Shown here in pieces: positions 15,668-60,460 of a stretch of 64,000 nucleotides of DNA. Below the pieces are notes generated by a model. The model did not search any database and was not told the origin of the DNA. It saw only the letters and a list, made by a program, of their open reading frames with translations. The translations under genes and the position numbers were made by a program. Location of the stretch: positions 130,636,001-130,700,000 of the forward strand of contig CM059431.1 of the NCBI GenBank assembly GCA_030390025.1, in the 5' to 3' direction. The DNA is from Squalus acanthias (Eukaryota). Each line of letters begins with the position of its first letter. Within the stretch, counting starts at the first letter, position 1.

Positions 15668-15793
15668 GCATATACCAAGATCACATTAACAGAAGGAATA
15701 ATCACAGGATGGGGTTGTTCAATTTTCTGACGTGCCAGGAATGTAGGAGTGGAAAATTCATTGTATTGTGTACTATTAGTTTTATGACTTATA

Positions 15794-16686
15794 GGGGGAA
15801 AAATTCAGTTGGTTGCGCCACCCGTTAGCGCCTTAAGAGGGCGCTAATGGGGCGCAAAGCATCTAGCGCCCAGGCGCGGCGAAGTTTGCGCCGATCGTGA
15901 AATTAACTAGACATTTTGCGGTGATGCTAAACACTACCGCCACGATCTCCTGCGCCGGCAGATCATGACGTCACTCGAGTGCGCAACGCCCTGGTATCGC
16001 CCCAGAGCGGATATTGAGTGGCGCCCCCTGCCTTACCACCTGACGCTAGCAACGACAGGTTGAGGGGAGCGTTCTGCAGTCATGAAGGGAAAGGGGGAGC
16101 GCTATTTAAAGGTGACCGCTTCCTGCCTTTTATTGTTGGTGCCATTTTTGAACTACACATTCTGAGAGAGAGAGGGAGAGACTTCTGGAGAGATTCAACG
16201 TTGTGTGAAGGAGTTTTGGGTACTGAGCAGCACTTTGCAGGTTCATTTTGACTTGCCATTCCTTGTATCGATTTAGCAGAGACTGTGGGGGCTGCACTCT
16301 GAGCTCTTGGCCTGGTACTCTCCATTGTTCTTTCCAGCACATTTGATGTGCAGTTCTCTCCAGGCCGAGATTCAAGGCTGCAATGAGCAGGATGTGGATT
16401 GAAAGCAAGATTAACCATCCCCTTTAAGAACTGGCCCATGCCATTGTGTGTGTGTTCCATTGCTGACTGACATTACATGAGCTTCGCCAGCGCTCTGAGG
16501 TAGCGCCTCGCTCCTCGGCCTTTGCGCCTTAAGACAGGTGTGAAGCGCCTGATATAGCGCTGCAATCACCTCCAGGGGCGATAAAAGTCAAGTTTGCAGT
16601 CGGTGGCGATAATTAGCGACAGGCGCTAATTTTTGCGCCCGGCCGATAATTGCGCCCCAAATGGGGCGATACTGAATTTCTCCCCC
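15794..16686. mobile_element. Harbinger MITE family A, copy 1 (893 bp)
   Basis: TIR GGGGGAAAAATTCAGT / ACTGAATTTCTCCCCC; ATA TSD; near-identical to 59094-59986 in reverse orientation. Confidence 0.95.
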
Positions 16687-16856
16687 ATACAGTCTTTAGT
16701 ATGCATACATTTCCATAAACACACAAAAATAATTACTTCATAGAGAGATAGAGGGATGGTCATGTTGTGGTTACGATACTGGACTAACAAGCTAGAAATT
16801 CCCCCCTGATTTGGCTTAAATATGACTTTAGTCCACAGTATGCCCTCAAAAGATAA

Positions 16857-17732
16857 GGGGGAGAAATTCAGTATTGCCCCATTTGGGGCGCAATTATCAG
16901 CCGGGCGCAAAGATTAGCGCCTGGCGCTAATTATCGCCTCCGACTGCAAACTTGACTTTTATCGCCCCTGGAGGTGATTGGAGCGCTAAATCAGGCGCTT
17001 CACACCTGTCTTAAGGCGCAAAGGCCGAAGAGCGAGGCGCTACCTCAGAGCGCTGGCGAAGCTCATGTGATGTCAGTCAGCAATGGAACACACACACACA
17101 GTTCTTAAAGGGGAGGGTTGATCTTGCTTTCCATCCACATCCTGCTCATTGCAGCCTTGAATCTCGGCCTGGAGAGACCTGCACATCAAATCTGCTGGAA
17201 AGAACAATGGAGAGTACCAGGGAAAGAGCTCAGAGTGCAGCCCCAAGAGTCTCTTCTAAATCGATGCAAGGAAGGGCAACTCAAAATGAACCTGCAAAGT
17301 GCTGCTCAGTACCCAAAATTCCTTCACACAGCGTTGAATCTCTCCAGAAGTCTCTCTCTCTCAGAATGCGTGGTTCAAAAATGTCACCAACAATAAAAGG
17401 CAGGAAGCAGTCGCCTTTAAATAGCGCTCCCCCAGTCCCTTCCTGACTGCAAATCGCTCCCCTCAACCTGTCGTTGCTAGCGTCAGGCGGTAAGGCAGGG
17501 GGCATCACTCAATATCCACTCCGGGGCGATACCGGGGCGTTGCGCACTCGACTGACGTCACGATGTGCCGGCGCAGGAGATCATGACGGTAGTGTTTAGC
17601 GCCGCTGCAAAATGTCTAGTTAATTTCGCGAGCGGCGCAAACATCGCCGCGCCCGGGCGCTAGTTGCTTTGCGCCCCATTAGCGCCCTCTTAAGGCGCTA
17701 ACGGAAGGCGCAACCAACTGAATTTTTCCCCC
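16857..17732. mobile_element. Harbinger MITE family A, copy 2 (inverted relative to copy 1)
   Basis: TIR GGGGGAGAAATTCAGT / ACTGAATTTTTCCCCC; TAA TSD at 16854-16856 and 17733-17735. Confidence 0.95.
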
Positions 17733-18208
17733 TAACTGTCAGTTATCAGGTAACTAGGGATGGGCTCCATTGAGGCATTGCCAGCATTGCCCACATTCAT
17801 GGGCAATTTTTTTAAATTCTTAAACGTTCATGGTTTACAGTTTCCAAGTTTTTGTATAAATAAATTTCCCAACTTTTAAAATGGTTGAGAAGATAACAAT
17901 TTTTTAAACTGAATTTACACCAGAAATAGACTCAAAAAGCAAAACGTTCTTTTTGTTTTCTTTTCTAACCAGCAGCAAATAAACAATATTCACAGATGTT
18001 TCTAATCTTGATGTCTGTTTGTGAGGGGTTCATAACAGAAAAACAGCAATTCTTAATAAATTTAAATAAATGCCATCACTTGCCTGAAATTAAGCTTTGC
18101 GAATTCACTATTTATTTTATTTCAATATCTTTTGGTAAAAGCAAGGAAACTTTTAATTCCTCAAATAATCCTTCATGATGATGCACAGATTGCATATCAG
18201 GAAACTTT

Positions 18209-19008: not shown

Positions 19009-19203
19009 TTTGTAAATTACACATGCCCGCAATGCACAGATGTGGTTGAAAGCTCAGTCCAACTGTTTTGAGGTAAAAATATTTAGTCAAAACCCAGGCT
19101 TTTAAGATAGCAAAATACTGCGGATGCTGGAAATCTGAAAAAAACAACAGAAAACGCTAGAAAAACTCAGCAGGCCAGGCAGCATCCGTGGAGAGAGAAA
19201 GAG

Positions 19204-19240
19204 AGTTAACGTTTCAGGTCGATGACCTTTCGTCAGAACT
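19204..19240 (-). ncRNA. Minimal type I hammerhead ribozyme motif (inverted arm)
   Basis: Reverse complement of 22629-22665. Confidence 0.8.
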
Positions 19241-19924
19241 GTGAAGAGCCGGAAATCAAATAGATTTAAGGCCAGAGTAAAGCTGGTAAAAGGGGGAGGG
19301 GATAAAAGAACAAAGGGGGAGATGAAGAGACATTAAGAGACATTAAGAGATATGCAAGGCTAGAGGTGGTGTTAATGTGACAGATTAAGGCTGAAAGAAG
19401 TGTGAAATCCACTGGCAGAATGAAGGACAGCTGCCAGCTTCTAGGAGGAAAAAAAAGGTGGGGGGGGCAAATAAAAGGGTGGAAAAAATAAAATATAAAT
19501 GTGATTGGAGCTGAGGTTATGATCTAAAATTGTTGAACTCGATATTGAGTCCAGAGGGCTGTAGCGTGCCTAAACGAAAGATGAGGTGCTGTTCCTCGAG
19601 CTTACGCTGCGCTTCCGTGGAACAGTGTAATAGGCCGAGGACGGTGAGGTCAGAGTGGGAGTGAAGCGGTGAATTAAAGTGACAGGCCACCGGGAGCTCG
19701 GGGTCCCCCTTACGGACTGAACGGAGGTGTTCCGCAAAGCGGTCACCCAATCTGCGTTTGGTCTCCCCAATGTAGAGGAGACCACATCATGAGCAGCGAA
19801 TACAGTATACTAATTTGCAGGAAGTACAAGTAAATCGCTGTTTCACCTGGAAGGGGTGTTTGGGGCCCTGGACAGTGGGAAGAGGGGAGGTGTAAGGGCA
19901 TGTGTTGCATCTCCTGTGCGTGCA

Positions 19925-22351
19925 TCTCTCGACATCTCTCTTCAGCAGCACCGACGCACTCTATCTCAAAGCTGTCCGGGTCCACAGTTCCATTTCATCC
20001 TTAGACTCATCCGACGCTTCAACAAAAAACTTTTCTTCTTCCTTTCCGATGTCAAGGATCGCAAGCTTCAACAACTCTTGGACACTAACGCCCCTCCGGA
20101 ACCTTCTTCCCCTTCACTTTCCTCTGACCCCCCTTCTCCCAATCTCACCCCCTGCCGCGTTTTCACTATCCCCTCTGACCTTCCCCTCTCTGACTCCGAA
20201 CGATCAGTCCTCAGCAAAAGCCTGACCTTCATCCCCTTACGCCCCCATCTCAATGAATTTCGAGCTCGGCACGATGCTGAGCTCTTTTTCCGCCGCCTCC
20301 GTCTCCGTGCCCACTTCTCTGGCCAGGAGTCTTCCCCCCGCACGGCTGACCCTTTCTCCCGCTTTCAGAATTCTCGTTCCACCTGGACCCCTCCCTCTGG
20401 CCTCTTACCCTCTCTAGATCTTTTCATTGCTAACTGCCGCCGTGACATCGGCCAGCTCAATTTCTCTGCTCCCCTCACTCACTCCAGCCTACCTCCCTCT
20501 GAACTTGCAGCACTCCATTCTCTCCGATCCAACCCTGACATTGTCATTAAACCTGCTGACAACGGTGGCGCTGTTGTTGTTTGGCGAACCGACCTCTACC
20601 TAGTGGAAGTTGAACGCCAACTCTATGACACCTCCTCCTACCTCCACCTGGACCATGACCCCACTACTGAACATCAAGCCACCGTGTCCAAGACCGTCAC
20701 TGACCTCATCTCCTCTGGAGATCTTCCCGCCACGGCCGCCAACCTCATAGTTCCCCAACCGCGCACAGCCCGCTTCTACCTCCTTCCCAAGATCCACAAA
20801 CAGGACTGCCCCGGTAGACCCATCGTTTCAGCCTGTTCTTGCCCCACGGAACTTATCTCTTCCTATCTCGACTCTATTTTTTCTCCCCTTGTCCAGTCTC
20901 TTCCCACCTACATCCGCGACTCTTCCGATGCCCTCCGCCATTTTAACAGTTTCCAGTTTCCCGGCCCCAACCGTCTCCTCTTCACTATGGACGTACAATC
21001 CCTCTACACCTCCATTCCCCACCAGGATGGCCTGAGGGCGCTCCGCTTCTTCCTTGAACAGAGGCCCAACCAGTCCCCATCCACCACCACCCTCCTCCGC
21101 CTGGCTGAACTTGTTCTCACATTGAACAACTTCTCCTTTGACTCTACCCATTTCCTCCAAATTAAAGGTGTTGCTATGGGTACCCGCATGGGTCCTAGCT
21201 ATGCCTGCCTTTTCGTGGGATATGTGGAACACTCTTTGTTCCAGTCCTACTCGGGTCCCCTCCCTTACCTCTTTTTCCGGTACATTGATGACTGTATCGG
21301 TGCCGTCTCCTGCTCTCGCCCTGAACTAGAACATTTCATTCACTATGCTTCCAATTTCCACCCTTCCCTCACCTTCACATGGTCCATCTCCGACTCTTCC
21401 CTTCCCTTCCTCGACTTCTCCATCTCCATCTCTGGGGATAGGTTATTGACTAACATTCACTACAAGCCCACTGACTCCCACAGCTACCTGGACTACACTT
21501 CCTCCCACCCCGCCTCCTGTAAGGACTCTATTCCATTCTCCCAGTTTCTCCGTCTCCGCCGCATCTGCTCTGATGATGCCACCTTTCATACCAGTGCTTC
21601 CGACATGTCTTCCTTTTTCCTCAACCGAGGATTCCCCTCTACCGTGGTCGACACGGCCCTCGACCGTGTCCGTTCTATCTCCCGCACTTCTGCCCTCAAC
21701 GCTGCCCCTCCCTCCCGGAACCACGATAGGGTTCCCCTTGTCCTCACCTTTCACCCCACCAGCCTCCACATTCAACGGATCATCCTCCGCCATTTCCGCC
21801 ACCTCCAGCGTGATCCCACCACCAAACACATCTTCCCCTCACCTCCCCTTTCAGCATTCCGCAGGGACCGCTCCCTCCGCGATACCCTAGTCCACTCCTC
21901 TACCACCCCCAGCACCCCTTCCCCTTCGCCCGGCACCTTCCCGTGCACGCGCAGGAGATGCAACACATGCCCTTACACCTCCCCTCTTCCCACTGTCCAG
22001 GGCCCCAAACACCCCTTCCAGGTGAAACAGCGATTTACTTGTACTTCCTGCAATTTAGTATACTGTATTCGCTGCTCACGATGTGGTCTCCTCTACATTG
22101 GGGAGACCAAACGCAGATTGGGTGACCGCTTTGCGGAACACCTCCGTTCAGTCCGTAAGGGGGACCCCGAGCTCCCGGTGGCCTGTCACTGTAATTCACC
22201 GCTTCACTCCCACTCTGACCTCACCGTCCTCGGCCTATTACACTGTTCCACGGAAGCGCAGCGTAAGCTCGAGGAACAGCACCTCATCTTTCGTTTAGGC
22301 ACGCTACAGCCCTCTGGACTCAATATCGAGTTCAACAATTTTAGATCATAA
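19925..22351 (+). CDS. Penelope-like reverse transcriptase + GIY-YIG endonuclease (5'-truncated, otherwise uninterrupted)
   Basis: IKPAD, FYLLPKIHK, GRPIVS, FTMDVQSLYT, GVAMGTRMGPSYA, RYIDD, LPFLD, HYKPT; C-x4-C-x2-C linker; NLVYCIRCSRCGLLYIGETKRRLGDRFAEH. The first ~23 codons of the listed 831-aa ORF come from the inverted arm. Confidence 0.95.
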   Translation, partial: SLDISLQQHRRTLSQSCPGPQFHFILRLIRRFNKKLFFFLSDVKDRKLQQLLDTNAPPEPSSPSLSSDPPSPNLTPCRVFTIPSDLPLSDSERSVLSKSLTFIPLRPHLNEFRARHDAELFFRRLRLRAHFSGQESSPRTADPFSRFQNSRSTWTPPSGLLPSLDLFIANCRRDIGQLNFSAPLTHSSLPPSELAALHSLRSNPDIVIKPADNGGAVVVWRTDLYLVEVERQLYDTSSYLHLDHDPTTEHQATVSKTVTDLISSGDLPATAANLIVPQPRTARFYLLPKIHKQDCPGRPIVSACSCPTELISSYLDSIFSPLVQSLPTYIRDSSDALRHFNSFQFPGPNRLLFTMDVQSLYTSIPHQDGLRALRFFLEQRPNQSPSTTTLLRLAELVLTLNNFSFDSTHFLQIKGVAMGTRMGPSYACLFVGYVEHSLFQSYSGPLPYLFFRYIDDCIGAVSCSRPELEHFIHYASNFHPSLTFTWSISDSSLPFLDFSISISGDRLLTNIHYKPTDSHSYLDYTSSHPASCKDSIPFSQFLRLRRICSDDATFHTSASDMSSFFLNRGFPSTVVDTALDRVRSISRTSALNAAPPSRNHDRVPLVLTFHPTSLHIQRIILRHFRHLQRDPTTKHIFPSPPLSAFRRDRSLRDTLVHSSTTPSTPSPSPGTFPCTRRRCNTCPYTSPLPTVQGPKHPFQVKQRFTCTSCNLVYCIRCSRCGLLYIGETKRRLGDRFAEHLRSVRKGDPELPVACHCNSPLHSHSDLTVLGLLHCSTEAQRKLEEQHLIFRLGTLQPSGLNIEFNNFRS

Positions 22352-22628
22352 CCTCAGCTCCAATCACATTTATATTTTATTTTTTCCACCCTTTTATTTG
22401 CCCCCCCCCACCTTTTTTTTCCTCCTAGAAGCTGGCAGCTGTCCTTCATTCTGCCAGTGGATTTCACACTTCTTTCAGCCTTAATCTGTCACATTAACAC
22501 CACCTCTAGCCTTGCATATCTCTTAATGTCTCTTAATGTCTCTTCATCTCCCCCTTTGTTCTTTTATCCCCTCCCCCTTTTCCCAGCTTTACTCTGGCCT
22601 TAAATCTATTTGATTTCCGGCTCTTCAC

Positions 22629-22665
22629 AGTTCTGACGAAAGGTCATCGACCTGAAACGTTAACT
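22629..22665 (+). ncRNA. Minimal type I hammerhead ribozyme motif in Penelope 3' UTR/pLTR
   Basis: AGUU-CUGACGA-A-AGGUC(AUC)GACCU-GAAA-CG-UU-AACU: intact core, 5-bp stem II, palindromic AACGUU in place of stem III, stem I AGUU/AACU. Confidence 0.8.
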
Positions 22666-23199
22666 CTCTTTCTCTCTCCACGGATGCTGCCTGGCCTGCT
22701 GAGTTTTTCCAGCGTTTTCTGTTGTTTTCCCAGGCTTTTAAGTCCTGCTGAGGCCTTAAAGTAAAAACTTTAAAGAAGGCTTTAAGCACACAAACGACAA
22801 TTTAATAGTTCAATTCATTCATGCTATTGGGAAATGTGTATTTTTTTTAATTTTGTTTAAAATATTATTTTGGATATTGAAAATTTATTAGAAAAATTGA
22901 TGCATGGATTCTTTTTCACAAAGCTTTTTGAGCGAGTCTGTTGGTTCAACAACAAACATGACAGTTAAATGTTTAAATAGTGATTTTCGTTATAAAATAC
23001 TGACATGTTTGGATAGGGTCTTCTCATTATAAAATGTTGACATGATTAGATAGGTTTTTCCATTATAAATGTTTACATAAGCAGTTTCTATCACACCATA
23101 AATTTTAACATAAAAATTATTACTGTAAAGAACATTTGTAGACAGGAAGTTTCTTGTCATGTGCAGTATTTTTTTATAATATGTTGATTATATGCATTT

Positions 23200-23612
23200 C
23201 CAGGTAGGTCTTAGGTTTGATCCCTGGTTTGTGCTCAGTTAGCTCACCTCACCCGTGATAGCTGTAAAGATACTACAATTAGACTTAACAGCCGAAAATG
23301 CTGGAGATACTCAGCAGGTCAGGCAGCATCTGTGAAGAGAGAAACAGAGTTAACGTTTCAGGTCGATGACCTTTCGTCAGAACCAGTCCAGTGCATTGCG
23401 GGCACCAGTTCTGACGAAAAGTCATCGACCTGAAACGTTAACTCTGTTCCTCTCTTCACAGATGCGGCCTGACCTGCTGAGTATCTCCAGCATTTTCTGT
23501 TTTTATTTCAGATTTCCAGCATCTGCAGTATTTTCTTTTTGTAGACTTAACAGCCTATGTTATCAACCAGGTTTGTTGCTCCAAAGTGCTATCAGTGACC
23601 CCCTGCTCTTTG
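23200..23612 (+). mobile_element. Old tRNA-derived SINE remnant interrupted by the Penelope hairpin
   Basis: B-box-like ggtttgatccc followed by tgtgctcagttagct; resumes as ctccaaagtgctatcagtgaccccctgct after the insertion; similar sequence near 63150-63245. Confidence 0.4.
23294..23541. mobile_element. 248-bp Penelope-derived hairpin element with two hammerhead motifs (23349-23383 minus, 23407-23443 plus)
   Basis: 14-bp TSD tagacttaacagcc at 23280-23293 and 23542-23555; ~90-bp inverted arms homologous to 22630-22720; ~44-nt tail homologous to 19107-19150. Confidence 0.93.
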
Positions 23613-26127: not shown

Positions 26128-26370
26128 ATGGTGCATTGTGGTAACGTCACTGGGCTAGTAATCCAGAGGCCTGGACTAATGATCCAGAGACGTGAGTTCA
26201 AATCCCACCATGGCAGCTGGGGAATTTAAATTCAGTTAATTAAATAAAAAGCTAGTATCAGTAATGTAGGAAACAGTAAGTGTATCGAGGTGTACGGACC
26301 AAAGGCGGGTAAATGGAGTAAAGGTACAGACCAGCCATTGTCGTAAAAACCCATCTGGTTTACTAATGAC
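26128..26370 (+). mobile_element. tRNA-derived SINE head/fragment
   Basis: A-box-like tggtgcattgtggtaa and B-box gagttcaaatccc (26196-26208). Confidence 0.6.
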
Positions 26371-31111: not shown

Positions 31112-31781
31112 ATCAGCTTTTCTAAAAAAAAATGAAAGACCTTTTCACGGTTGCCAGTATTTTGTTAACATTATACTGGGAAGAAGTTTGAAATGCTGTG
31201 CAGCATAAATTTAATAAATTCTTTTGAAAAACTTCACTAAAGAAAGCATTTATAAATCTGACATATCTCTCAGTCTCTCATGGGATTTAAATACATAAAA
31301 TATTATAATAAAACTGGCTTTCTACCTAAAATTTGATACATGAAGCATAAACAGATAACCGGTAGTAATATCAGTTCCAAATGATTGTGTTCTATATTTA
31401 AGACTGTTGCTTTCTTTCCTTTCTTTGAAGCTTTGTCTGTTTTGTAATCCCTGGTTCCTGAGCCAATTTTATCACTGAGCTGCCACATTGTTTGGGAATG
31501 AAAGTGTCAAACGATCGTGCATTATGTGCACTGTGGGAGTAATGGAGGTAGATTATATGCTGTATTCTATTCACAGCCATGAGTCACAGTTTTGCTACTG
31601 AAGCTGAATGAAATCAGATGCAACAATAAGAGAAACTTCACCTGCAGTAAGGTAAGATAAAAAAAAATGTTAATGTCCACGACGGGTACAAATTCTCATG
31701 CTCTTAAAGTGGATAATGTGCAGATGTGAAATATAATAGCGCTACCAGTTTACAACAATACTGGGTGATCTGTGTGTCTAT

Positions 31782-32679
31782 GGGGGAAAAATTCGGTTCG
31801 TTTGCGCCTCCCGTTACCGCCTTAAGAGGGCGCTAATGGGGCGCAAAGCAACTAGCGCCCGGACGTGGCGATGTTTGCGCTGCTCGCGAAATTGACCAGA
31901 CATTTTGCGGCGGCGCTAAACACTACCGCCACGATCTCCTGCGCCCGCAGATCGTGACGTCAGTCGAGCGTGCAACACCCCGGTAGCGCCCCGGACCGGA
32001 TATTGAGTGGCGCCCCCTGCCTTACCTCCTGCCGCTAGCAACGACATGTTGAGGGGAGCGTTTTGCAGTCGGGAAGGGACTGGGGGAGCGCTATTTAAAG
32101 GCGACCGCTTCCTGCCTTTTTTTTGTCGGCGACATTTTTGCACCACGCATTCTGAGTGAGAGAGAGAGAGACTTCTGGAGATATTCAACGCTGTGTTGAG
32201 GAGTTTTGGGTACTGAGCAGCACTTTGCAGGTTCATTTTGATTTGATCTTCCTTGTATTGATTTAGAAGAGACTGTGGGGGCTGCACTCTGAGCTCTTTC
32301 CCTGGTCCTCTCCATTGTTCTTTCCAGCAGATTTGATGTACAGGTCTCTCCAGGCCGAGATTCAAGGCTGCAATGAGCAGGATGTAGATGGAGAGCAAGA
32401 TCGACCCTCCCCTTTAAGAACTGGCCGGCGCCATTGTGTGTCTGTGTTCCATTGCTGACTAACATCACATGAGCTTCGCCAGCGCTCTGAGGTAGCGCCT
32501 CGCTCCTCGGCGTTAGCGCCTTAAGACAGGTGTGTAGTGCCTGATTTAGTGCTCCAATCACCTCCAGGGGCGATAGAAGCCAAATTTGCAGTCGGAGGCG
32601 ATAATTAGCACCAGGCGCTAAACTTTGTGCCCAGCCTGATAATTGCGCCCCAAACGGGGCGATACCGAATTTCTCCCCC
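31782..32679. mobile_element. Harbinger MITE family A, copy 3
   Basis: TIR GGGGGAAAAATTCGGT / ACCGAATTTCTCCCCC; TAT TSD. Confidence 0.95.
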
Positions 32680-32899
32680 TATATATTGAACTTAATACTG
32701 AGGAATTCTTGCTTTAGCTGAGACCTTTGTGCTGGATGAATTCTGTTCCTGAGCTCCTGCTCTGATATTGTCTCTTATTGTGGGAAACAGCTTGTCGTAT
32801 GAAACTTGTACTTTAAAAAAAAAGTCCTCAAAAGTTTTACATATTGTGTTGTAATTTCCCAATATAAAACTAAAAAAATATATACACTTGTAAAGAAAA

Positions 32900-48965: not shown

Positions 48966-49121
48966 TTCTCATTCAAAGTGTGTCAGGTGAGGTAGAAGTG
49001 AGAAGGCGGATTAGGTATGCAGAAACCCTAGTCATCGATCTCACCAACGCCCCCTCCCATTATTGCCAGGACGGTCTCCTCCAGGGGGTTGAGTACGTGA
49101 AGGCGTGCTGCTTCTCCACCA

Positions 49122-49339
49122 TGATGTGGAGATGCCGGTGTTGGACTGGGGTGGACAAATGTGAGAAGTCGCACAACACCAGGTTATAGTCCAACAGCTT
49201 TATTTGAAATCACAAGCTTTCGGAGCGGCTGCTCCTTCGTCAGGTGAAGAAGGAGCACCTGATGAAGGAGCAGCGCTCCGAAAGTTTGTGATTTCAAATA
49301 AAGCTGTTGGACTATAACCTGGTGTTGTGCGACTTCTCA
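49122..49339. mobile_element. 218-bp hairpin element of a second Penelope-type family with two hammerhead motifs (49211-49246 minus, 49256-49290 plus)
   Basis: 13-bp TSD tgcttctccacca at 49109-49121 and 49340-49352; arms 49162-49246 and 49256-49339; 40-nt tail at 49122-49161; core CAC-CUGAYGA-A-GGAGC(loop)GCUCC-GAAA-GY-UU-GUG. Confidence 0.9.
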
Positions 49340-51380
49340 TGCTTCTCCACCAGTAACAGTTTGCTACCTCCTATTATGCACAACCTCCTCCTGCAAGAAA
49401 GAGGGAAGTGCGTTTGTGAGTGTCTGTGATATGTCTGGCTGATGTATCTGTGATGGCTGAATAGCTGGCAATGTGTGTGTGGGATATGAGTTGTGGGTGT
49501 GAAGTTTTTTATAGTGCTGAATGTGTGAGGGTGATGTTAAGCATATCAATTGAAATGTTCAGTACTGATTAATAGAGATTGTATGTGGGTGGGGGTGGAT
49601 TGAATCCAGCAGTTGATGAGGCTAGTGGTGCAGCTCTTATGAAAAGCCATGTGAAGGTTGACAACTTTGGTCCAATCTTTAAACTTCTCCTGACACTGCA
49701 TCCAGGTACGTGGAGCCATACTCCTCGCAGTCACCTCTTCGGCGACCTTCTCTAACTGCCTCTTCATCATGTGACATGAAGGCTTCCTGCCCCCAGTGGT
49801 TAGAGGATGTCTCTCCTCCTCTCAACCTCCTGCACCAAGGACTCCAGTGCACATCGGAAAACCTTGGTGCACGCACTCTACCAGATTCAGCCATTTGAGT
49901 AATAGATTTTTCACAGAAGTTCTGCTCAGCACTTTTTGTACTGTCTCCCTTTAAGTAGCGTTGTGCACTTCCCATATTGGGCCGTCTTCTCATGTGTGCA
50001 GTCAATGAACGACACGGGTAGCACTGGCTGCATCCAGCAATCATTGAAATCAGCAGGTGGCATAGACTTTACGTGCTGCCTGCATCGCAATCAACGGGTG
50101 TGAGTTAATTATGTCCCATGATCCCATTCTCCCGTGTTATGGAATTTAACCCCACCTTATGTTTGATCTGCACTTTCTTTGAGTGCAACTTTACAGCTGG
50201 GAGCGCAAGAAGAAATTAAATCTGTAGTGATTATAGTTCTTTTTCCTGGTAGACTGTTATAATTAGGGATTTCAATTCTACAAATTATAATGGAAATTTT
50301 CCTATAATTTCAGAAATAAGGCATTTTAGCATCTATTCCTACGCAAAACATTTTCAGTGTCTTAAATAAGAACATTGCATACATTTGGAATCCATTTTAA
50401 AACTGTGGTGTACTTTTGTGGATCACAGAATTGTGATCAGGCCAAATGAAATACAAAATATGATGTTTTTATTGAGAAAACAGCGCTGACCTGTTTTTCT
50501 ATTTTTGTATCTTTTCCACATTGACAGCTGATGTGGATTATCCATATAAAACCTTCATTAATGTCTGGTAATAAAAATGTTTATGTGCCAAATTAAATAG
50601 TGCCATGTAAATATGCTATAAAATCCTATTTTGAAACACAGTTCTGCTCCTGACAGGAAAACAGCACAAATGTGGTTTCAAAATCTACAAAGATTCATCA
50701 TAATAATAATAAACGATGGCGGGTTTGGGACATTAACTTATTAGTGCTTATTGCAGTAAATCCTTCTCATCACAGAAGGAAACAGCAGTGATTTGGTACC
50801 TGATACCACGTTGAATATAAATAATGCAGTTATTGCATCAAATACAATCTCAGTAGTAGCATACACTAGTGCATTAAAACTAATTAAATTGTATTCATGA
50901 ATTGTAATGTGATCTAAAAGTACAAGTAAACTTATGGCAGCTATCACTGGTCCTGCACAACACAGCCTCAGGCATAGACTGTCTACTAAGAGGTAATTTT
51001 ACTTTCAGTTAAATCTTGCTACATGATTTATCATTCCAAATATAGATTTACAGATTTGCAGCATGCAACATAATTCATCAGGTGCACTGTCCACGCAGTT
51101 GCACGTAGAATAGTCAAATTGAGAAACATCAAGACAGGAAATCTGTAGCCCTTCCGATGCACTCCTGCCGTAAGTGTGGCAGACGTGCAGCAGTAGAGTT
51201 GGAACTTAGGCCGGAAGCCAGAAACAGCGGCTCCCCATCTGTTTCAGCAGAGCATTGTTTAGGACAAAGCATCCACCCTTCCCAAACAAGGTCACCCGTA
51301 TCAGAGGGGGAATGGCTGAGGGGTGCAGACTCTGGGCCACGGCTCCAGCCTGGAAACATATTGGCAGGTTGGCAGACCCA

Positions 51381-58865: not shown

Positions 58866-59093
58866 ATTATAATTATCTGTACTTTTTAAGTCTATTTTCC
58901 ATTGTGATAGAGCGTGCAAGTTTTGATGTAGTAACTAAAAGAAGCAGATACCGCTGTAATTTTTATGAAACATTTGAAGCCATGTTTCCTAGAAAATTGA
59001 ATTAGTAAGATGATTAATTTTTCAAATGTATCTGCACAAAAACTTGATGGAACATCACAAAATGTCATTAACTAAATCCAGTGGAAAGTCATA

Positions 59094-59986
59094 GGGGGAG
59101 AAATTCAGTATCGCCCCATTTGGGGCGCAATTATCGGCCGGGCGCAAAGATTAGCGCCTGGCGCTAATTATCACCACCGACTGCAAACTTGACTTTTATC
59201 GCCCCTGGAGGTGATTGAAGCGCTATATCAGGCGCTTCACACCTGTCTTAAGGCGCAAAGGCCGAGGAGCGAGGCGCTACCTCAGAGCGCTGGCGAAGCT
59301 CATGTAATGTCAGTCAGCAATGGAACACACACACAATGGCACGGGCCAGTTCTTAAAGGGGATGGTTAATCTTGCTTTCCATCCACATCCTGCTCATTGC
59401 AGCCTTGAATCTCGGCCTGGAGAGACCTGCACATCAAATGTGCTGGAAAGAACAATGGAGAGTACCAGGCCAAGAGCTCAGAGTGCAGCCCCCACAGTCT
59501 CTGCTAAATCGATAGAAGGAATGGCAAATCAAAATGAACCTGCAAAGTGCTGCTCAGTACCCAAAACTCCTTCACACAACGTTGAATCTCTCCAGAAGTC
59601 TCTCCCTCTCTCTCTCAGAATGCGTAGTTCAAAAATGGCACCAACAATAAAAGGCAGGAAGCGGTCACCTTTAAATAGCGCTCCCCCTTTCCCTCCATGA
59701 CTGCAGAACGCTCCCCTCAACCTGTCGTTGCTAGCATCAGGCGGTAAGGCAGGGGGCGCCACTCAATATCCGCTCCGGGGCGATACCGGGGCGTTGCGCA
59801 CTCGAGTGACGTCATGATCTGCCGGCGCAGGAGATCGTGGCGGTAGTGTTTAGCGCCGCCGCAAAATGTCTAGTTAATTTCGCGAGCGGCGCAAACTTCG
59901 CCGCGCCTGGGCGCTAGATGCTTTGCGCCCCATTAGCGCCCTCTTAAGGCGCTAACAGGAGGCGCAACCAACTGAATTTTTCCCCC
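59094..59986. mobile_element. Harbinger MITE family A, copy 4 (893 bp)
   Basis: TIR GGGGGAGAAATTCAGT / ACTGAATTTTTCCCCC; ATA TSD. Confidence 0.95.
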
Positions 59987-60460
59987 ATAGAGTCATAGAG
60001 TTATGCAGCACAGAAAGAGGCCCTTCGGCCCATCGTGTCTGCGCCGGCCATCAAGCCCTGTCTATTCTAATCCCAGTTTCCAGCACTTGGTCCGTAGCCT
60101 TGTATGCTATGGCGTTTCAAGTGCTCATCTAAATGCTTCTTGAATGTTGTGAGGGTTCCTGCCTCTACCACCCTTTCAGGCAGTGAGTTCCAGATTCCAA
60201 CCACCCTCTGGGGTAAAAAGTTTTTCCTCAAATCCCCTCTAAACCTCCTGCCCCTTACCTTGAAACTATGCCCCCTGGTTATTGACCCCTCTACTAAGGG
60301 GAAAAGTTCCTTTCTATCTACCCTATCTATGCCCCTCATAATTTTGTACACCTCAATCAGGTCCCCCCTCAGCCTTCTCTGCTCTAAGGAAAACAACCCC
60401 AGCCTGTCCAGTCTCTCTTCATAGCTGAAGCGCTGCAGCCCAGGTAACATCCTGGTGAAT
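59987..60460 (-). mobile_element. CR1 3' fragment
   Basis: ORF 60067-60450 YEERLDRLGLFSLEQRRLRGDLIEVYKI...WNSLP; (agtcatag)n tail. Confidence 0.92.

Follow-up and report, generated by a model that had tools for sequence, protein, structure and literature searches.

The window analysed here is a stretch of 64,000 nucleotides from Squalus acanthias (GCA_030390025.1, contig CM059431.1, positions 130,636,001 to 130,700,000 of the forward strand). Direct reading confirms the original prediction of a 248-bp insert (23294-23541) that is flanked by an exact 14-bp TSD (23280-23293 and 23542-23555) and made up of two inverted arms starting at hammerheads and a one-sided 44-nt tail. Positions within arms are numbered with the C of the hammerhead CUGA as 0 and are counted (+/-) along the sense strand of the element. 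The insert comprises the following features:

23280..23293, plus strand: left TSD, 14 bp, an exact repeat of 23542-23555
23294..23383, minus strand: tail-less left arm, 90 nt, -3 to +86, matching subfamily A at all diagnostic sites
23349..23384, minus strand: intact copy of a minimal type I hammerhead (core, 5-bp stem II, 4-bp stem I), predicted cleavage between 23352 and 23351
23384, minus strand: non-templated G, a candidate cap-derived base directly 5' of the left arm, where the templated base would be A
23384..23404, plus strand: copy-specific junction filler, 21 nt, in which two additional CCAGT units overlap with 14 nt copied from nearby DNA
23405..23497, plus strand: tailed right arm, -6 to +86, beginning in the Initiator-like CCAGTTC
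23407..23443, plus strand: damaged copy of the minimal hammerhead with a stem II mismatch, predicted cleavage after 23439
23498..23541, plus strand: one-sided tail, 44 nt, abutting the right arm
23542..23555, plus strand: right TSD, an exact repeat of 23280-23293

The arms differ from each other at 3 of 90 positions, with all three changes in the right arm, and the left arm is near-identical to subfamily-A copies elsewhere in the genome. As a whole, the insert folds into one long hairpin (-173.7 kcal/mol, z -22), a stability that none of 200 shuffles equalled. It combines pLTR-derived sequence, an inverted copy with a one-sided tail, and a TSD, the marks of an EN+ Penelope-like element (PLE) insertion, and is a real, dead insertion of this known class without evident function. 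Its Penelope-like origin, already proposed from the letters of the stretch, is supported by 87-91% identity of the arms to the 3' end of a neighbouring PLE.

Each arm starts 3-6 nt ahead of CUGACGA, which is followed by an extra A, a 5-bp stem II, GAAAC and GUU, with a stem I of 4 bp. The hammerheads were called by manual comparison with the minimal hammerhead given in the accessible part of PMC4209133. The left arm has the complete minimal type I layout of PLEs (CUGANGA, extra base, stem II, GAAA, palindromic minimal stem III, NUH and short stem I), and the right arm has the same layout with one mismatch in stem II. Pair 10.1-11.1 is A-U rather than the usual G-C. An Rfam scan of the window returned no hammerhead match, and in unconstrained folding none of five 61-nt hammerhead pieces was more stable than its shuffles; in a constrained fold the left-arm hammerhead reaches -6.4 kcal/mol and the right-arm one +0.1 kcal/mol. 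A transcript of the insert would contain one sense hammerhead together with its complement, and the predicted pairing probability of the core is 0.96-0.999. With the core buried in duplex according to this prediction, ribozyme activity of the insert appears unlikely. PLE hammerheads are described, in the available portion of a review, as cleaving slowly and only as dimers (PMC6765202).

The spacer between the arms, originally put at about 24 nt, is present but measures 21 nt (23384-23404), its supposed last 3 nt being part of the right arm. As had been noted, it does not match the upstream element, yet 14 of its nucleotides match the minus strand of a nearby site:

19024..19037, minus strand: probable template of the 14-nt core of the spacer (14-nt match)

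This 14-mer occurs at only eight sites in the 3.7-Gb genome, and the one in the window would lie ~620 bp from the insert if the neighbouring PLE were absent. Shuffled spacers had a 14-mer match anywhere in the window in 5 of 2000 cases and within 5 kb in 2 of 2000. The longest run that this filler has in common with any other collected spacer is 7 nt. Splicing onto host exons was rejected as a source of spacers, there being solo copies with little or no filler between TSD and arm. The single G at 23384 proves nothing alone, and such a signal was sought in the population of arms.

Upstream of the insert lies a larger element:

19093..22742, plus strand: Neptune-type PLE from another subfamily, truncated at its 5' end; a separate 14-bp TSD (19093-19106 and 22729-22742) encloses the element proper (19107-22728)

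This PLE carries a 785-bp inverted arm and a tail on its left, with the arm junction inside its ORF and the arms identical at 778 of 785 positions. The ORF matches RVT_1 (RT) and GIY-YIG, both below the curated Pfam cut-offs, and has 889 relatives at E <= 1e-50 among 8000 candidates; its nearest named matches are shark and ray proteins. A CX4CxxC linker is found at residue 674, and the linker pattern is present in 100 of 120 listed relatives. In the accessible text of PMC8557442, a CX2-5CxxC linker before the GIY-YIG motif defines Neptune and is shared with Nematis; the neighbour and the parent element of the insert are probably of Neptune type, and by the linker alone would be Nematis-compatible as well. 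The neighbour had been taken for the probable autonomous partner of the insert, which is not borne out, as it belongs to a different subfamily (83/90 positions identical to the left arm of the insert, 7/90 sites differing) and its ORF is short by a median of 100 N-terminal residues relative to 25 full-length relatives. On sequence grounds we regard it as a relative of the insert and not as its source. The differences between its arms (7/785, versus 3/90 in the insert; p 0.07) are no more than suggestive of a neighbour younger than the insert. At 23451-23541 of the window, a reading frame starting with an ATG at +46 extends across the tail of the insert, and the length of this frame would suit the missing N-terminus of the neighbour ORF; no copy continuing it beyond the tail was found among 52 genomic sites with extended tails.

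We use the term mini for a short double-arm hairpin with two opposite-strand hammerheads, and we examined where the arms of such hairpins and of related copies end, using the first 40 to 100 matches on the first contigs. An unbiased sample was formed by the first 40 loci in genome order, of 4,940 sites, located by a motif 60 nt downstream of the core. The 5' ends of these 40 arms fall at -6..0 (10 arms), +4..+9 (4) and +20..+49 (3); upstream, none ends at -73..-7, 11 end at -240..-74 and 12 are longer, giving a hotspot with p 1e-10. Among the short arms of this sample, ten are solo, for the most part with a TSD that can be recognised, and seven belong to minis. By eye, 26 of 100 further cores end at -8..-2 and 2 at -23..-9, and the overall spread of ends near the core is -8 to +9. 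The expectation that arm ends lie close to the ribozyme is thus borne out when loci are picked by criteria that ignore what lies upstream. On the other side, 3' ends lie mostly near +91..+99 or +129..+134, both classes occurring in solo and paired arms, and some tails reach ~+140 as a minor third class (52 genomic sites). A large public run of contigs, possibly unrelated to the present genome, has 227 loose ends at -3 and piles of ends at +96/+97 and +132. Partner arms were short-short in seven cases of the 40-locus sample, long-long in two and mixed in none (chance 1 in 36); one mixed long-short pair (L037) was seen among 29 other loci. The arm ends lie ~30 nt upstream of the cleavage site, so ribozyme cleavage (+28/+29) did not set them, and this candidate was rejected; one of the 40 index arms starts nearby (L111, +27), as do three among the 29 other loci (L050, L059 and L060).

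The end site of this family (family 1) reads CCAGTTC with its A at -4. It fits the Initiator consensus, YYANWYY, and it also resembles a 3' splice site. To see which base precedes the A, we went through the first 100 of the 1,175 sites where that base is other than C and left out 17 (13 mutated long copies and 4 of another family). By eye, the 83 remaining arms starting at -4 are preceded by G in 40 cases, A in 25 and T in 18, against an expected G frequency of 28% (from flanks) or 18% (from TSDs), an excess with p 1e-4 that persists if the 18 hairpin rows are excluded (G 32/65, p 3e-4). One exact 22-mer starting with the G has 360 genomic sites. A scripted count of the collected loci, mostly filler-bearing hairpins, found G in 10 of 30 at -3/-4 and in 4 of 24 at -6, with no excess. 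In a further subfamily (G000:C1:7886542, 160554030, 160593005 and 160782918), the hammerhead starts in the same way but is preceded by a different, purine-rich sequence.

A second PLE-like family (family 2) is also represented in the window:

49109..49352, strand not assigned: second mini, of family 2, with a 13-bp TSD, arms starting at -6 and -3 and a tail on the left

The 6-nt filler of this second mini is copied from stem II. The family 2 end site is TCACTTC at -9..-3, without AG. Among 100 family 2 cores inspected by eye, 50 end at -11..0 and none at -21..-12, and in about one third of the first 100 listed, again by eye, a partner arm immediately precedes the core. All seven distinct family 2 arms starting at the Initiator-like A (-7) are preceded by G by eye; in hairpins the G may derive from the partner arm, as it may in five of these seven (about 5 in 9 by chance for each). 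Nine of nine further cases show the complementary C from the other strand, also by eye.

An extra G is reported as a capping mark at full-length L1 5' junctions in the available part of PMC11702581, and the junctions described here resemble them in this respect. It seems probable from these end and base counts that the arm ends are set by the capped 5' end of the RNA. Against this stand the spread of ends from -8 to +9, the lack of a G excess in the scripted count, the likeness of the family 1 site to a 3' splice site, the mixed pair L037 and the failure to find a full-length source copy, as 0 of 52 extended tails (to +140) continue into shared sequence. Drosophila Penelope is a further point against it: there, helix I marks the end of an intron, and transcription begins 46 nt before that intron, according to the portions of PMC4209133 and PMC2377424 at hand. 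In the literature consulted, mostly open-access and without Repbase, no report turned up that short PLE insertions have 5' ends at a fixed point or marked by a cap, nor did the cap or start-site signal; the inverted-arm-plus-tail pattern has already been published.

Taking together the structure, the copy population, the end hotspot, the G excess and the unique spacers, we favour as the likely origin of a mini the end joining of run-off cDNAs from capped, uncleaved RNA of an EN+ Neptune-type PLE, a reading that infers a start site, a cap, twin priming and a repair route. The element RNA would start, capped, at the Initiator-like motif ~2-6 nt upstream of the hammerhead core, and the protein would nick both target strands ~14 bp apart. 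Reverse transcription would begin at two putative internal sites, which lie ~90-100 and 130 nt past the core; when the sites closest to the RNA 5' end are chosen, both cDNAs would cross the uncleaved hammerhead and, ~90 and 135 nt from their starts, reach the cap and run off, in some cases with a C added opposite the cap G. The free ends of the two cDNAs would then be fused head to head by end joining, and the filler between them would be copied from DNA in the vicinity. Two primed run-off cDNAs joined in this way would yield inverted arms, a one-sided tail, a unique spacer and a TSD. In the insert, the left arm would be the cDNA from the upstream RT start site and the tail the stretch between the two start sites. 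The resulting minis are predicted to be unable to move again. In vitro evidence for such priming comes from the Poseidon element of Anolis, not from Neptune: in the available text of PMC11167929, the protein nicks and extends both strands with uncleaved RNA as template, two internal start sites bracket the tail, and RNA to +172 of the ORF is required, with starts at +111-118.

The same ends could be produced on a long template RNA if RT stalled upstream of the hammerhead at a roadblock (splicing factors, the U-rich tract or the ribozyme fold), with joining unchanged. The pyrimidine tract of family 1 ends in CAG at -3 and is kept in all subfamilies seen, a branch-point-like CTTAA lies ~35 nt upstream in long copies, a few arms end at -12 to -14, and the position of the Drosophila intron end at helix I (PMC4209133, accessible part) would also suit a stall of this kind. 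However, family 2 has the same hotspot without an AG at the site, a roadblock does not predict a non-templated G, and the arm ends lack a shared upstream exon, and we judge this explanation unlikely.

Less probable still is that one cDNA snaps back and primes itself, the second arm being a copy of the first, as was proposed for the palindromes of rotifer PLEs in the available part of PMC3846280. Perfectly palindromic junctions do occur, and the two arms of a locus usually match in subfamily, with an arm divergence of 4.4% within loci versus 8.0% between loci. The tail-less end at +91..+99 is, however, also found in solo copies with TSDs and thus marks a priming site rather than a second-strand stop, and the extra G is found on either arm. 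Locus L021 is a further difficulty for snap-back, with two tails and arms from two subfamilies inside one 14-bp repeat with a single mismatch, which suggests two RNAs in one event. L013 likewise has tails on both sides and arms from two subfamilies, and no TSD was seen at this locus. The arms of L029 (~1490-1760) also come from two subfamilies; one of them seems to have inserted into the other a short way upstream of the hammerhead, and 13 bp of element sequence are duplicated.

The original prediction had left a choice between an extreme truncation product and an independent non-autonomous retrozyme- or MITE-like hairpin family mobilised in trans. Copying of the hairpin as a unit would fit the common architecture and size of minis, with at least 163 genomic loci having two cores within 30 nt by exact pattern. 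These tight double hairpins hold 326 of 22,534 exact core sites (1.4%), a share that on a rough estimate is about that expected from independent ends at the hotspot, so that separate amplification is not needed. Against a hairpin family, no filler recurs in 50 listed loci, and the four junction types that do recur consist of element sequence only. We assembled a sample of 54 double-arm minis, partly from biased searches, after dropping duplicates and one secondary L008 row. All 24 spacers of at least 8 nt in this sample are distinct, and for nine of the 24 the match to the flanking 60 nt is better than that of 95% of shuffles. A TSD was found in 46 of the 54 minis (mode 14), and tails are one-sided in 51, on both arms in two and absent in one. 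The minis come from at least three subfamilies, and no arm-specific variant sites were found besides +55, an artefact of query selection. Minis also lack the sequence beyond the tail that the Poseidon enzyme requires in vitro (PMC11167929, available text), and a transcript would bury the core, with a predicted pairing of 0.96 and 0.999. Unique fillers, a local template and several subfamilies fit separate joining events rather than a copied hairpin. An independent family is not borne out, given copy-specific fillers, several subfamilies with matching arms, and solo arms that share the same ends; copying as a unit in trans is very improbable, and we are highly confident that the insert arose de novo as a one-off and is not a member of a hairpin family. 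Of the two signs proposed for one-offs, unique spacers are seen, but randomly distributed arm lengths are not, the ends being sharply fixed. The run-off model accounts for one tail per insert, matching subfamilies, the uniqueness of the fillers, the G and the pairing of short arms with short arms. That both arms were truncated at random from the 5' side, with ribozyme proximity a sampling effect, is largely refuted and now hardly credible: long inverted pairs and within-core ends (+4 to +49) occur, tight double hairpins make up only the small share of core sites given above and the initial genome search was biased towards such hairpins, but the hotspot persists in samples blind to the upstream side and recurs as the loose contig ends at -3 of the public run.

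Canonical EN+ PLE insertions, as presented in the accessible parts of PMC8557442 and PMC3846280, likewise have head-to-head arms, a TSD and a pLTR hammerhead, with an adjoining inverted copy that is 5'-truncated and a one-sided tail of 30-40 bp; the insert here is also tailed on one side. Unlike them, the insert has no ORF and almost no 3' UTR, and both arms end at a fixed point by the hammerhead, with G excess. Fixed ends and G excess point to complete run-off copies and not to truncations. The TSD of ~14 bp compares with 8-10 bp in rotifer PLEs (PMC8557442 and PMC3846280, same parts). In Schistosoma, opposite-strand minimal hammerhead pairs 100-700 bp apart are described in the available part of a 2014 study (PMC4209133). 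The Anolis Poseidon system shares with the present elements two start sites bracketing the tail, priming of both strands and a template hammerhead that is left uncut; our element has a Neptune/Nematis-type linker, unlike Poseidon. In the accessible text, the Poseidon paper proposes multi-copy transcripts, leaves later steps unexplained and is silent on short run-off products and on the 5' end of the RNA (PMC11167929). Non-LTR retrozymes are likewise short, non-coding and PLE-derived with a type I hammerhead, and are defined in the available part of 10.64898/2026.07.22.740005 as head-to-tail repeats with two same-strand ribozymes; here the ribozymes lie on opposite strands and spacers are not inherited. 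Identity with such retrozymes, which calls for at least two head-to-tail units, was rejected, the insert having one unit per strand, head to head.

MITEs are short, palindromic and TSD-flanked, with fixed terminal repeats and a fixed short TSD. Minis, by contrast, have neither fixed terminal repeats nor a fixed short TSD; their ends would be RT start sites, and their tail is asymmetric. In LTR retroelements, minus-strand strong-stop DNA is primed near the RNA 5' end and runs off at the cap. Unlike this DNA, minis would be target-primed and integrated, as two cDNAs head to head, with no tRNA primer or integrase. A speculative extension, which we hold to be doubtful, is that minis are integrated strong-stop DNAs of a transcript that starts, capped, at the hammerhead and has its closest usable RT start sites 100-135 nt further downstream, and that the run-off cDNA can instead jump to the matching region at the RNA 3' end or on a second RNA, giving long copies and pLTR tandems. 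If so, PLEs would combine target priming with a strand transfer of the LTR kind, and the task of the hammerhead might be to bring RNAs together in pairs or to mark their ends, not to release the template. Two loci offer leads on strand transfer. In L089 (337 to 238), on one contig of the public run, a head-to-tail joint leads from +96 back to -3 and delimits a 100-bp unit, possibly a template jump and the seed of retrozyme-like tandems. The other is L021, the two-subfamily, two-tail insertion.

Should the run-off reading be true, more than a thousand genomic copies would record the transcription start of the element at base resolution, and the in vivo template would be capped and uncut by the ribozyme, with both target nicks primed from one RNA region. 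It would also tell CAGE experiments and a capped-template assay exactly which coordinates to examine, and it bears on how PLEs build inverted and tandem insertions and on the role of the hammerhead. The insert is of value as one record among many of where the RNA of the element starts and where it is primed. Hairpins of this kind should not be annotated as MITEs, retrozymes or microRNA precursors. A MIR396 Rfam match in the window (37.7 bits, cut-off 80) is the hairpin of the second mini and was rejected as spurious. A tRNA-like match at 26132-26216 reaches 26.5 of the 29 bits of the Rfam cut-off and is probably a SINE head. Another repeat of ~900 bp is present at 15783-17734, 31769-32689 and 59091-59999, with copies 89-97% alike, and forms a head-to-head inverted pair at 15792-17734.
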